Assembly (NCBI RefSeq): GCF_003790525.1
Contig: NZ_CP033635.1
Direction: 5' to 3' (one strand)
From: Escherichia coli
GTDB taxonomy: Bacteria; Pseudomonadota; Gammaproteobacteria; Enterobacterales; Enterobacteriaceae
DNA: 64,000 nucleotides
This document shows positions 41,701 through 47,700 of this stretch, one piece after another; the first letter of the stretch is position 1; each line of letters starts with the position of its first letter. Made by a program: the position numbers.

Positions 41701-44700
41701 AGGCTGATACTGATATCTGCAGCAGTCAGTAATGTGAACGGGAAGGCAAGAATCAAACGCAACGTAATCGATTTCATTGCCTTAATAATAAGAAGTGCCA
41801 GGATAAAGAATAATATCCGGTAAATCAGATGCGCTCCTGAGGATACAAGGAGATTAGAAAGGGTAAAGACAACCACTGATAACACGAGGCGCTTATCATT
41901 GCTAATCCGTGACCAGTGTATGAACGGAAGATTAATTTTCATAATAATTGAGAAAAAGCGATATTTCTGTCCGGCGCTGGTCGCTGAACATGCCGCGACA
42001 GGTGAATTCATTATTCTGAATAATCATAAAGCCACCACAAATGTAGCGGCGTAAACAGGAACGTCATGATGTTTTCTTTCGTGACAGAAGAGAACCGCAC
42101 ATACCACCCGCAATCATTATCATCAGGAATAACATCCCCAGGCCAACGATTACTCTTAATGCCGGATGAACCCGATCGGCGAGAAAAAATAACTCCATCC
42201 CGAAACCAATAACAAGCCAGGCCAGCGCCATTCCGACGAGCCCTTTTAACAGCAATCTCACGCTCCTCTCCTTCTGCATTCTTAACGAAAATGCCTTACA
42301 ATAACAGCAGCCGGGGAAGGCAACGCTGGCTGCTGAACGGTATGACATTTTACTGCTTTATGTTCTCTCAGTTTCTGTACTGACGCCGCCATTAATGGTA
42401 TTACAGTTTATTCAGAATAAGGCATGCGGCCTGGTTTAATGCAATAAACTCCTGCCAGCTGTACTGAGACTGATAATTCAGTAAATACTGGTCTTCAACC
42501 CGGCAAATCTGTGGGCGTTTATCATAAATTGCACACAAATGAGAATCAGTCTGATAGTAACGGCAAATACCGTCACCACGATCCAGACATTGCGTTTCAC
42601 CCGCCCTGTTGACATGACGACAACAGGCCCCACACTGGTTACAGGGAAATGGAGGGTGTAATTTCATCGCTTATTTAACCAGTCACGAACAGAAGCCACA
42701 TTTCCTGACTCAAACGGCAACGCAATCCCTCGTCGGCGGACTTCTTCTCTCAGCAGAAGTCCGCGCTCTATCTCACTGTTTACGCTATCCAGATGAAGTG
42801 AAAAATGATTTAACTCGGCAGCATCAACAGAAAATTCCAGTGCAGTAAGTTCCACAAGATAGCGATCAAGTTCAGCATTGACTGCCTGAAAGTATTCCAG
42901 TGACCGCTGGAATTTGTCCTTAAATTTGTCCAGAAATGCCCATACCCGCTGCATAACCTCGCTATATTCGAGATAATAATTCATCACCAGCCCGAGAATA
43001 CCTGTCGTCAGCGCACCACAAAAGGCAGCAAGCTCTGAACCAAATGGGAAAATAAGGATCTGCGCCATCGCCTCATTTATCATCACCCCTCCGGCAACAG
43101 CCACACCTGCTGCTATCAGTTTAGTGACCGCTTTGGCTAACTGCCCCGGCGATAATCCCTCCGGATTAAATACCAGGACTTTAAAGGCCTGAACGAGATT
43201 GTTCCACATTTCCCTGATAAGCCGGACAATCATTCTTTCCGTTGTCAGGAATATATTTAACAGCGTTGTGGTAATACCTGACAGTATCCCTCCGATGACA
43301 CCATCTTTAAAGGCAATTAAAAAAGAACTGAATTTTTCCTGTACTCGTTCCTGGCAGGCACGTAATGCTGACGTTATTTCGGACAGGCATTTGCCGGCGC
43401 TGAATGAGTTCCGTTGCTGCCTGATAATATGCGGGATTCGTTCCCTCAGTTCGAACCAGATCTCGGCAAGAATAAGCCCCAACATCTGTCGCGTCCCCAT
43501 ACGAAAACCGGAATTAAGCGAAGCACTGGCGACAGCAGTAGCAAACTTACTACTCAGGTAATAGCTCTGATTAATCGTGGCCTCATATTTTTCCCGGGCA
43601 TATTTATCAGCCCTTTCCATACGCTCAGTATCTGCATCAGCTTTTTTTCTCAGACTTATCAGACGTTTCTTTTCCTTTTCTGTCAGCGTTGCCTGAGATT
43701 CAAGCTCTGCTATCTGCCTTAACGTATCTTCTCTGTTTTTCTGCAGCGTGCAAATAAACGCATCCATTGAGTCTGCTTTCTTTGATTTATTGAGCGACTC
43801 ATGAGTGAATGCCAGATTTGAAGCGTCATTTGCCAGTTCTGCACCATCCCGTTCAGCAAGAATTCTCCCCGGATCATCATGAATTTCTTTAGCGGAAATA
43901 ATATGATCCAGATTTTTTTTGTCGTCAGAAGCAAACACCTCGCCTGTATATGCATCAGTAAGAGTCCCTGCCTGATGCGCACGCTTTCCTTCCCGGTTCG
44001 TCGCGATATAGTTCTCATGGCTGTGGTAATGATGAGAATCATATTCGCCACGACCTTCATACCGCTGTCGCTCAGCCTCCGTGGCATAAATGCCATTACG
44101 CACATTATGGATAGTGTCAACATCACCACCCTTACGATCATTTAGCAACAGAAAATCCAGCCCGAATGATGTAACCAGGCTCTTCACCATGGTCTGATGT
44201 AACTCTTCTGTCCAGTCAAATTTTTCCACATTCATGTTATTTCACTTCTTGTAAAGCCGGGCTTTAACGCCCGGTAAATCATTAACTCTGGGATGAAAAA
44301 TCATCAAATTTCACAACCGAACTGGCCAGTACATCATCCAGCTCATCCTTATTAATAACGTTCATTCCATTATCATCCGTTTCCATTTCAATAACGTTAT
44401 CTTTTATCACTGCCTCACCATTTTCCTGTTTCCGCGGTTTAAACAGTGGCGTTGTAATAATATCCGTCATAATAGCGGCCAGTGAATATCCATGGTCAAT
44501 AAGCACAATGACTTCATCTGATACACTGATATCCTGTTGTTCTGTAATAACAGAATGCATGGATTTAAGCGGCTCAAAATAGTGTTTAATAAATACAGCA
44601 TGCATTCTGTTCAGTGCAGCGAGAATTTCATCAACGTATTGATTAACTTTTGCAAAATGCTCCCGGGCCAGATTCATTTTCTTAACTGCCCGTGCAACAT

Positions 44701-47700
44701 CGCAGGCACACTGATGGGCATTTTCAAGAGCTTTCGTCGCATGTCTGTCGTAAGCCCAGCCCGCAATGGCAATCAACGGTGCAGCCACTGCGGTGCCTAA
44801 TACCATTGCGCCGCCGGCCATTCCCATGCCCCCTGCAGCCAGTGAGCCCCCACCAATTGCCGCCATCGTCGCGTTATAAGCCGCGGCACCAGAAAGCGCT
44901 GCAATGGGTGTACCTGTAGAAGCCGCAGCAAATGCCATCACTCCGCTATACACAGCAAAACCCGCAGCAGCCCCGGAAACTCCGGCAGCAACGACCGTAC
45001 TGAGATATTCTGTCGCTGAAATGGCCAGGTTCTGAATCTTATTGATGTTATGTTGCGGGACACTCAGTTTCAGGTCTTTATTGCCCTCTTTTTCCAGACG
45101 CGCCAGGAGCTCAGCAGCAATCCTGTCGAACTCACTGAAATCTTTACCAATCTCAAGCTCTTTATTTCCGAGCGTTGTTAATTTTGATGATGTCTGAGCT
45201 TCAGCCTGCTCAAATTTTTCTTTATGCTCCTCGTAACGCTCTTTTGCTTTTTCGAGGATATCCTCTGCTTCTGACTTTTTTTGATATCCATCGTAAGCTT
45301 TTTTTCCGCCGAATGCCGCAGCGCCGGCAGCCACACCCAAAATAATAAAAGGTAACGCCATTCTTTTCCTCCTGTACAGATTGCTTTATCATCAGTCAAC
45401 TGAAATATTTCAGGAAACATTCTCAGCAGTAAGGTATTTTCCTAACATTGTTAACACGGCTTCTTTCAGCCATACTGGTTCAATAATTTCAACATTCGGT
45501 AGCCAGTATAAAATCAACGGGACAATTTGATTTTTATGTGCAGCCTTGCATGACAGCGTAATGCCATTGTCATGTTTGTGTAGCAATTGCTGGTAAGGAA
45601 GTAAGTCCCGTCGCAAAAAATAATGGGCGATATTACTGTAAATGAACAACACAACATCAAATGTTTTGTCGCTCACCCACGGGTCACATGACTCACTTAC
45701 CAGTGACTGGATTTCATCACTCTTTGCAAACTTTTCTTTTTTTATATCCAGCCATTTTATTTTAGCTAATGAAAACGACTTTAACTTGTTCTCTTCAGTA
45801 GCCAGCAAATACCATATACCTCTCTGATTAGTTAATTTATAGGGATGAACGATTCTGGTCTTACCGGCATATGCAATCTGGCAAACATTACTGTTGCAGA
45901 TCGCTTTTTCAAGAACATCAAGATATTTTCTTAAATCATCCCTGATGGTGTGCTCAGGGTTATGAAACTGAACACGAATATGCCTTTCGGTTGCCCTGTT
46001 TTCTAATTTCTGCCAGAAACCTTCATCCCGTTCAGGAAAAATCGCATCAGTATCCAGTAACCTGGCCAGAGATTTGTGCAGTGATTCTTTGCTCTGGTTT
46101 CCTGCTCTTGCCGAAATAAGCCGGTATTTTCCATCGCCACAGGCTTCAATAAAGGGAGAAAGCATATTCAGATCACGATATGCTGTTCGCTCAGTGATGT
46201 TGTATTTTTTCATCAAATTATAGCGACTGACCACGCCATAATTTTGTAATTCAACAAGGATATCAATCAAACGCTCCGCTGAGCGATTTCTCGTTGAGTC
46301 AACCATAAATCACTGCACCTGTAGTATTACTCTTGTGTAAGTGAATTATATAAATACTCCTGACATCATTTGTCAGTTCCACAAAACTACGCCCTCCGGC
46401 AACAGATTTTTATTTGATTATGTTCAAACTTTAAACCAGATGTCCGGGAGCCTCCTTCGTAATACGGTTTATTGTTTCCGGAAGGGCTGATATGACAAAA
46501 AACAACGTGTCCCAACAACAGTCCTTTTTCATTTAACAGACTGACAACCATACTGCGCGCTACCTGCCCCCTGTAAAAAATCAACGAAAGTAATATTTTT
46601 GCTCTATTTATATTTCATTCATCTGAAATTATTAGTTGCCAGAGGGAGAATATCATCAGGATATCTGTTATTGATTTGTCATACCTGCACTTTACTGTGC
46701 TCCAAAGCGCAGGCAGAAATGGCTGTCAGAAGTTATATGTTGCACCTAACATAAACTCGTTACTTCTGACATCAACAGAGGATTTATATTTAGCACCATC
46801 CTCATCTTTATAAGTCAGAGTGGAATCCCCTGCATCCAGATACCGGTAGCTGAGGTCAAGGCTGAAATCCTGCGTCACATCGTATTTAACACCGGCACCC
46901 AGGCTCCATGCCAGGTTGTTTTCGTATTTTGACGCTGAAGCTGAATAAACTTCACTGCCTGCCGGGCTGTTATCGGTATATATGTACGAAGTTTTATGAT
47001 GAACCCGTGCATAACCCAGACCAGCAGATATCCATGGCGTGAATGCACTGCTGTTTCTGAAATCATAATACGCATTCAGCATCAGCGTGTTTACACTGAG
47101 CTTGTTCTGTGCATCATCGAACTCGGCACCACCGGCACTTTCCCAATAACTCAGACGATATTTTGATTCAGCGTTACCGCGGCCATAAAACTCCACTTCA
47201 GTACGCACCGGCACATTGTAGTGCTGATAAAAATCGTATCCCACCGCAAGGCCTGCGCCAAAAACCGTATCACTTTTGTCACTGCCTTTGTATTTATCCG
47301 CCCATGCCCCTTCACCATCAACGAAACGTTGCTCTGAAAGTGACATAACAGAAACACCGGCTTTACCGGTCACATAAAAGCCAGTTTTGTTCTCATCAGC
47401 CAGAGTCTGGGCCGAAAACATGCCTGCCATTGCAAGTGTTGAAACAGCAATAACCTTTTTCATTTCAATCATCTCCGTTGGTTCTTACCCCACCCGATAA
47501 AGAAGGTTGCTCATTTTAAAACCATGCAAAAGACAAGGTAAAAAGAGAAAATTCGATCGAATCGATCGACAAAATCGATCATGAATGATGAAGATTTCTT
47601 ATCGAAGACATGAAAATGATAAGGAATGGTTTAAGAGGTAATTGCAACGGCATGGAAGTATTGAGACCAGAACAGCACGAGATAAAGCGGCTGAACGTCA

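Follow-up and report, generated by a model that had tools for sequence, protein, structure and literature searches.

A WYL-headed operon of Escherichia coli encoding a candidate membrane-tethered HNH nuclease and a glycine-rich partner: a putative mobile defence cassette

Gene layout and conservation of the cassette

The window analysed here is a stretch of 64,000 nucleotides (nt) of Escherichia coli (RefSeq assembly GCF_003790525.1, contig NZ_CP033635.1). A six-frame list of the open reading frames (ORFs) in the window shows a run of four minus-strand genes at 42401-46306. The first encodes a regulator of 298 amino acids (aa) with predicted winged helix-turn-helix (wHTH), WYL and WCX domains (45410-46306) and is followed by gene A (359 aa, 44282-45361), gene B (523 aa, 42664-44235) and gene C (88 aa, 42401-42667). 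Gaps of 48 nt and 46 nt separate the regulator from A and A from B, and the last 4 nt of B (ATGA) are also the first 4 nt of C, exactly the tight packing given in a preliminary description of this DNA. On the basis of the comparisons described below, the cassette is rated as a candidate defence operon, regulated and of the nuclease-plus-membrane kind, made up of uncharacterised protein families.

Related loci were collected by scanning a gene A profile over one genome per GTDB species, which returned 77 loci. About 70 proteobacterial species and one Veillonella share the order A-B-C. Among them are Enterobacterales, Vibrionaceae, Pasteurellaceae, Pseudomonas, Acinetobacter/Moraxella, Aeromonas, Halomonas, Xanthomonadales, Neisseriaceae, Burkholderiales, Chromatiales and methanotrophs, besides the Veillonella. 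In the loci with a full-length A, a B homologue always follows within about 50-130 nt, and C comes after B in all surveyed loci except a few on truncated contigs. Recurrence of the triad in about 70 species indicates that the arrangement is far beyond chance. The preliminary description had suggested a survey of gene-pair conservation; the unit that proved to be strictly co-conserved is in fact the A-B-C triad. The order is permuted in Pseudomonas vranovensis (WYL-B-C-A; L075 1569-5454) and in a metagenome contig (B-C-A; L091 1832-4820). A linkage that outlasts rearrangement is strong evidence that the A, B and C proteins work together.

Gene products and predicted regulatory elements

The gene B product consists of an N-terminal alpha/beta HNH-type domain, a coiled-coil region, three hydrophobic helices and a helical C-terminus. 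Its relatives number at least 871 representatives of 50%-identity clusters. The predicted beta-beta-alpha-metal core, assigned from conservation and an AlphaFold2 (AF2) model, spans residues 105-152 (43780-43923, minus strand) and contains D110-H111, N140 and N149 within the motif LDHII...NLAFTHESLNKSK. Among 138 representatives of 50%-identity clusters, H111 occurs in all 138, residue 110 is D in 133 cases and E in the remaining 5, and 137 have N140 and 137 have N149. The HNH-like motif noted earlier in this protein is thus retained at all four positions (D/E110, H111, N140, N149) in 137-138 of the 138 representatives. In the model, H111 ends the strand 107-111, N140 lies before the second strand (141-145) and N149 is located in the helix 146-152. 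Structure prediction had been proposed for both large proteins; it yielded this beta-beta-alpha arrangement for B, with a predicted local distance difference test (pLDDT) score of 80.7, and a less confident model for A (pLDDT 65).

Comparisons of gene B with known structures and families gave matches of low significance. A Foldseek search of the PDB puts six Cas9 structures at the top, three of them the HNH domain alone, with probabilities of at most 0.84 and E values of 0.4-1.2. In Pfam, gene B matches GmrSD_C only, and weakly (E 0.22); among 59 family members, a single one attains 1e-3. A BLAST alignment with an SpCas9 HNH segment recovered the short DHI...DD motif alone and was not significant. 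No significant match to gene B was found in NCBIfam or PHROGs, nor in PDB sequence searches with A and B singly and with a profile of B. The match to the PADLOC model PDC-M40B is strong (1.3e-42). Taken together, gene B very probably carries an HNH, or His-Me-finger, nuclease domain, as judged from its conserved residues and predicted fold, while no nuclease profile matches it significantly.

The hydropathy of gene B marks three hydrophobic helices (residues 311-331, 365-394 and 401-423) within residues 311-423 (42967-43305, minus strand). They are surrounded by K/R-rich flanks and a short uncharged loop (395-400). Two residues inside the first helix are nearly invariant, G316 in 136 and N327 in 137 of the 138 representatives, which argues that the hydrophobic helices do more than anchor the protein. 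This part of B had been described as similar to the hydrophobic block of A. The hydrophobic helices are indeed present, but the two halves are not detectably homologous: an hhalign comparison gave a probability of 2.7%, and the idea of a homology between them was rejected.

Gene A has 1203 relatives, and an alignment of the family shows an N-terminal hydrophobic helix followed by an invariant KK, a charged helical stretch, a central block and a helical C-terminal part. The central block, residues 119-205 (44747-45007, minus strand), is Gly/Ala-rich and essentially charge-free across the family, with 0.2 K+R and 0.4 D+E per 87 positions; its 87 residues correspond to the roughly 90-residue Gly/Ala block first noted in this 359-aa protein. 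Column identity in the block is 0.82-1.0, compared with 0.56 elsewhere in the protein, and ASTGT, N163, GGGS, G177-G184 (G/A-xxx-G repeats) and P195 are invariant. The AF2 model contains long helices at 3-91 and 190-274, and the block is modelled without confidence. Gene A matches the PADLOC model PDC-M09A (3.5e-22), with no significant match in Pfam, NCBIfam or PHROGs. None of the Pfam families Gly-zipper_YMGG, _Omp, _OmpA and Rick_17kDa_Anti is listed for gene A, and "glycine zipper" is used here only as the description of a sequence pattern. No housekeeping or characterised family in Pfam, NCBIfam or the PDB claims A or B, in agreement with the initial failure to recognise a known effector family in them. 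A 361-aa A-like protein of Acinetobacter baumannii (L081 5464-6549) has the ASTGT...GGG...AAGG block and matches PDC-M09A at 5e-25; it stands among housekeeping genes, without B or C.

The spacer between A and B contains a predicted stem-loop, CCGGGC-GTTAAA-GCCCGG (44257-44274, minus strand), which starts 7-8 nt past the A stop codon. Of 68 loci (L006-L079), 67 form a stem of 6 bp or more in this spacer. The median folding free energy is -18.4 kcal/mol, with a median z of -2.83 relative to shuffled sequences and z < -2 in 48 of the 68. The stem-loop sequences are unrelated between taxa, and a T-rich tail follows in 11 of 68 only. The near-universal presence of a structure with unrelated sequences and few T-rich tails indicates that the stem-loop is kept by selection as a structure and is mostly not a canonical terminator. 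Its simplest reading is a stabiliser of the mRNA end or a leaky stop, which would make A more abundant than B and C, and the stem-loop probably sets the A:B expression ratio.

The gene C product has a borderline match to the CxxCxxCC family PF03692 (1.5e-3). Across 66 orthologues, conservation is at least 97% for each of eight cysteines (C9, C12, C15, C16, C35, C45, C55 and C82), indicating that C is an intact, real gene under selection. The YkgJ-type Cys-cluster protein initially proposed here is therefore seen as a CxxCxxCC motif with four more conserved cysteines, while matches to the NCBIfam YcgN models are far below cut-off. PGAP leaves gene C unannotated in E. coli W2-5; a Klebsiella plasmid copy is named "YkgJ family cysteine cluster protein".

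The regulator at the head of the operon, recognised from the start as a WYL protein, has HTH_11 (1.4e-3), WYL (8.7e-9) and WCX (3.3e-7) domains in this N-to-C order by Pfam and matches the PADLOC WYL models (2.6e-22). Its matches in the PDB are weak (E 0.04-0.16) and include WYL-domain proteins and a DeoR-family regulator, which we take to be DriD. The domain matches place the regulator in the wHTH-WYL-WCX class that includes CapW, BrxR, DriD and PafBC. CapW is a repressor that senses single-stranded DNA (ssDNA) (PMC11662680). BrxR homologues are known neighbours of defence systems, and it has been proposed that uncharacterised genes beside them belong to systems not yet discovered (PMC9122601). 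Directly upstream of the cassette, a WYL-type ORF on the same strand is present in 46 of the 77 surveyed loci and a divergent one in 5 more; about one third of the loci, for example that of Aeromonas (L002), have no WYL gene.

A perfect palindrome, CTGACA-AATGA-TGTCAG (46360-46376, minus strand), precedes the WYL start codon by about 55-70 nt. Its arms are identical and its 5-nt spacer is variable in loci of Citrobacter, Serratia and Pectobacterium (L007, L010, L011, L012, L029), and palindromes of the type GACA...TGTC are present in distant loci. A -10-like box, TATAAT (46345-46350, minus strand), read from the sequence, lies 9 nt downstream of the palindrome, and the distance from the palindrome to TATAAT or CATAAT is constant in six enterobacterial loci. 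No -35 can be assigned with confidence, as CTGACA taken as the -35 would mean a 20-nt spacer. This footprint of conserved arms, variable spacer and fixed distance to TATAAT is read as a predicted operator overlapping the promoter and favours repression.

Mobile setting and neighbouring genes

The 3.9-kb cassette stretch is 100% identical in many complete E. coli genomes. Of 5426 complete E. coli genomes, 434 (8%) have the cassette, chromosomal in every case, so that it is sporadic within the species. It is further carried by 69 plasmids, of which Klebsiella contributes 39, and many are large IncF plasmids of this genus. An adjacent A-B pair, at 34% and 30% identity, is encoded by the Aeromonas jumbo phages LAh10, D3, D6 and D9 (seven records). 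The phage pair lies in an accessory-gene region, retains an intact HNH motif and is without C or WYL; superinfection exclusion is one possibility for its function. In LAh10 (L083 3979-6575), as in D3, D6 and D9, the pair adjoins a PagP-like gene.

Distant relatives of B have other partners. Some pair with proteins of 214-217 aa that have a Gly-rich hydrophobic N-terminus and a TerB-like domain (L087 5337-7650; L089 2452-4848; L090 463-2859). On a small plasmid (L085 4882-9979), an 873-aa B-like protein is encoded beside a dynamin-like GTPase.

For the genomic neighbourhood, 20 large flanking ORFs were sampled from 18 loci of other species, with E < 1e-5 taken as a defence match. Ten of the 20 match known defence proteins: a type I restriction endonuclease, MzaA, a DRT reverse transcriptase, GmrSD-like/SspE-like proteins, ZorA, ZacB, LeoA/LeoBC (twice), a JetC-like protein and PDC-M16A. 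In Allochromatium humboldtianum (L032 96-3547), a LeoA/LeoBC-type dynamin pair is located 2-4 kb upstream of A-B-C; its proximity to the cassette may be a coincidence or a functional link.

In E. coli, the cassette has a GC content of 40-46%, compared with 50-56% for the core genes in the window. According to the RefSeq annotation of E. coli W2-5, it lies within an island inserted at tRNA-Phe, beside a tyrosine integrase, so that the AT-rich island DNA of the preliminary description can be assigned to a tRNA-Phe island with its integrase. The boundary of the island is marked by the tRNA-Phe gene (about 28718-28793) and the adjoining integrase gene (about 28970-30154). Core genes (yqgA, speC and others) precede this boundary, and everything downstream is island. 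Its other cargo includes a raffinose operon, insertion sequence (IS) fragments, an eptA-like gene, an outer-membrane protein gene, a two-gene AAA-ATPase unit, a type I restriction-modification (RM) system, and MazG-like, thymidylate-synthase and dGTPase-family genes.

Two ORFs downstream of the cassette, a 94-aa ORF with two transmembrane segments (42064-42348, minus strand; a 65-aa version in RefSeq) and an eptA-like phosphoethanolamine transferase gene (557 aa, 40338-42011, minus strand) that may act in lipid A modification or polymyxin resistance, were considered as members and rejected, since they recur solely in one near-identical Enterobacteriaceae locus (L006). The outer-membrane protein gene is likewise not conserved with the cassette and was rejected. 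Of the five or six genes originally counted, the contiguous minus-strand run stands, but the conserved unit is four genes.

The type I RM system, which flanks the cassette, is complete (50621-56871, minus strand) and consists, with coordinates converted from the W2-5 RefSeq annotation, of hsdS (50621-51763), hsdM (51760-53394) and an hsdR-like DEAD/DEAH helicase gene (53458-56871), all on the minus strand. Directly after hsdS follow an AAA-ATPase gene (540 aa) and an overlapping gene for a 313-aa partner (48094-50612, minus strand). In PADLOC, the ATPase matches PDC-M55A (1.4e-40) and NsnB (3.2e-37) and has an AriA/GajA-like N-terminus, and the partner is a weak NsnC match. By these matches, the pair is a second candidate defence unit, attached to the RM operon. 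The region at about 58293-64000 contains a MazG-like gene, an XRE regulator gene, a hypothetical gene overlapping thymidylate synthase, an IS3 pseudogene and a dGTPase-family gene, which may be further nucleotide-directed defence genes.

Interpretation and relation to known systems

The favoured reading, to which we assign a probability of about 0.55, is that the cassette is a WYL-controlled, self-contained, mobile anti-phage (anti-invader) operon with a membrane-tethered HNH effector. According to the proposed mechanism, the regulator would bind CTGACA-N5-TGTCAG over its own promoter and hold expression of the operon close to zero. The parallel with CapW and BrxR suggests that infection or DNA damage, with ssDNA as the ligand, would free the regulator. 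The B protein would act as an HNH-type DNase at the inner membrane, with its fold and catalytic residues taken from conservation and the model. It would be anchored by the hairpin of residues 365-423 and the helix 311-331, with the nuclease domain and both termini in the cytoplasm; the K/R-rich stretches on both sides of the hairpin suggest that these flanks are cytoplasmic. The A protein, made in excess over B owing to the stem-loop after its stop codon, would insert its charge-free, glycine-zipper-like block into the membrane and oligomerise. With both of its long helices predicted on the cytoplasmic side, it would place or activate B as a scaffold or sensor in the membrane, and it may itself leak ions. 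The C protein, translationally coupled to B, is a putative 8-cysteine metal or Fe-S protein and may be a cofactor or a restraint of B.

The predicted outcome is cutting of DNA at the membrane. The target would be either the incoming phage DNA or all DNA, the latter together with membrane damage as abortive infection. The jumbo-phage A-B pair and the sister pairings with TerB-like or dynamin-like proteins lean toward membrane-linked sensing and action at the entry site. Tight repression, typical of toxic effectors, leans toward abortive infection.

Several points weigh against this defence reading. Some loci, for example the Aeromonas locus L002, are situated between housekeeping genes, without defence neighbours or a WYL gene. 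No Pfam HNH family matches gene B significantly, and the E values of its Foldseek matches are 0.4-1.2. A scan of IMG/VR viral contigs gave no close relatives. PADLOC lists the relatives of A and B as candidates, and the support presented here comes from sequence and models. WYL regulators also govern DNA-damage responses unrelated to phages (PMC13010146, PMC13004042). The preliminary description had proposed a candidate uncharacterised defence module. Co-conservation, the class of the regulator, carriage on islands, plasmids and phages, defence neighbours and the lack of a housekeeping or characterised family for A and B speak for that proposal, as did each of the comparative tests put forward with it, whereas the novelty it implied is reduced by A and B being PADLOC candidates already.

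A more specific form of immunity is possible, and we hold it only tentatively. Here, in what would be a new class of immune system, the nuclease itself would be built into the inner membrane: A, as an oligomeric glycine-zipper partner, would sense the membrane disturbance caused by injection of a phage genome and open or position B, which would otherwise be restrained by an Fe-S or Zn protein C, so that foreign DNA is cut at entry. Jumbo phages would have borrowed A-B for superinfection exclusion, and the sister branches would use TerB-like or dynamin-like membrane sensors instead.

The cassette could also be a death or lysis module induced by DNA damage or stress and not directed at phages, in which a WYL sensor would induce a holin- or pore-like A and the nuclease B, in the manner of SOS-controlled colicin/lysis operons or of WYL-controlled damage responses. 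The WYL regulators DriD, PafBC and those of Acinetobacter control DNA-damage regulons, and the PDB sequences nearest to the cassette regulator are WYL-domain and DeoR-family proteins, the latter presumably DriD. The nuclease and membrane-protein content is compatible with such a module, and A-B in lytic jumbo phages could serve lysis or the breakdown of host DNA. However, the distribution is patchy and borne by islands, plasmids and phages rather than lineage-wide, known defence genes are often neighbours, and about one third of the loci are without the WYL gene. Genes that typically accompany bacteriocins, for secretion, receptor binding or immunity, are absent from the ORF list. We consider this explanation unlikely.

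Carriage on the 69 plasmids, which include many large IncF plasmids of Klebsiella, and in a tRNA-associated island would also suit an addiction or stabilisation module of the toxin-antitoxin (TA) type, in which B, alone or together with A, would act as the toxin, counteracted by C or the WYL protein. The small C gene is translationally coupled to the nuclease, and the operon is compact and self-contained. Four genes with two large membrane-associated proteins are nevertheless unlike known TA modules, and the phage version keeps an intact HNH motif without C and WYL, which makes this explanation doubtful; TA and defence functions overlap, so it would not be exclusive of defence. The housekeeping roles implied by the RefSeq names, "ATP--cob(I)alamin adenosyltransferase" for B and "chemotaxis protein" for A, are very improbable: the names alone speak for them, whereas neither cobalamin adenosyltransferase nor methyl-accepting chemotaxis protein (MCP) models, including MCP signalling domains, match A or B at NCBIfam E<=0.01 or Pfam E<=10, only 8% of complete E. 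coli genomes have the genes and the HNH catalytic residues of B are invariant, so that both names are unsupported.

Returning to the defence reading, the nearest regulatory parallels are the CapW/BrxR operons of CBASS and BREX. The regulator has the same three domains and a position at the operon head like that of brxR, and a palindrome within the promoter region of the regulator and a defence-island setting are shared. The cassette genes differ in being unrelated to CBASS or BREX components. Compared with solved WYL regulators, the similarity of the cassette regulator is marginal (E 0.04 or worse), and repression and a ligand are proposed by analogy.

Among catalogued candidates, A matches M09A and B matches M40B, which belong to two different systems, PDC-M09 and PDC-M40. 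The partner models of either system are unmatched, with no M09B or M40A match among the four cassette proteins in PADLOC. As the A and B matches fall in separate systems, the combination A+B+C(+WYL) is not itself catalogued. In the PDC-M40-like branch, the partner of B seems to be a TerB-like protein. PDC entries (Payne et al., bioRxiv 10.1101/2024.01.29.577857) are phage defence candidates, chosen because their relatives lie inside BREX, DISARM or type I RM systems. Literature searches by system names, accession numbers and domain combinations found no paper on the cassette, and it is unmentioned in PMC13069673, PMC12392091, PMC9122601 and PMC7824862.

The putative nuclease domain of B shares D-H...N...N on a predicted beta-beta-alpha core with the HNH domains of the Cas9 and GmrSD type; Cas9 is the top Foldseek match, and the GmrSD_C match is weak. 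It differs from them in the lack of a significant profile match and of a zinc-binding cysteine, and B alone has a long helical hydrophobic C-terminal part fused to the domain. In HNH bacteriocins (colicin E7/E9, S-type pyocins) the HNH domain is C-terminal, whereas that of B is N-terminal. Searches of PDB sequences with B and C gave no match to colicins or Im proteins, and the ORF list contains no lysis gene. Matches to two-component alpha-pore-forming toxins of the ClyA/SmhB/YaxAB type are below significance and are taken as resemblance, not membership.

Zorya (ZorAB with ZorC/D) and Kiwa (KwaA/KwaB) couple an envelope component with DNA targeting. The proposed logic of the cassette, a membrane component with a DNA-directed effector, is alike, and relatives of B also pair with membrane modules (TerB-like, dynamin-like). 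However, there is no sequence relationship, the cassette nuclease itself bears hydrophobic helices, and no motor or ATPase is encoded in the cassette. The dynamin-like LeoA/LeoBC (Eleos) proteins differ from A and B, which have no Dynamin_N or GTPase match in Pfam. Gene A has a weak match (E 0.008) in the C-terminal region of the LeoBC profile, and its hhalign similarity to a LeoBC-like protein has a probability of 22% and covers just 25 Gly-rich residues; homology of gene A to dynamin-like proteins is considered unproven. By these comparisons, the cassette does not appear to be a member of any characterised system.

None of the three putative effector proteins A, B and C falls in a characterised family. 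Recognition of the cassette corrects misleading RefSeq names on thousands of proteins, and the operator palindrome and the intercistronic hairpin, both absent from the preliminary description, provide a regulatory model from this analysis. The architecture is unusual and the comparative signal remarkably clean, although many candidates of this kind exist. If the proposed mechanism is true, a nuclease with its own membrane-embedded helices and an ultra-conserved Gly-rich partner would be a new link from the envelope to DNA destruction. If it protects against phages, the cassette would add a widespread system to the bacterial immune repertoire.

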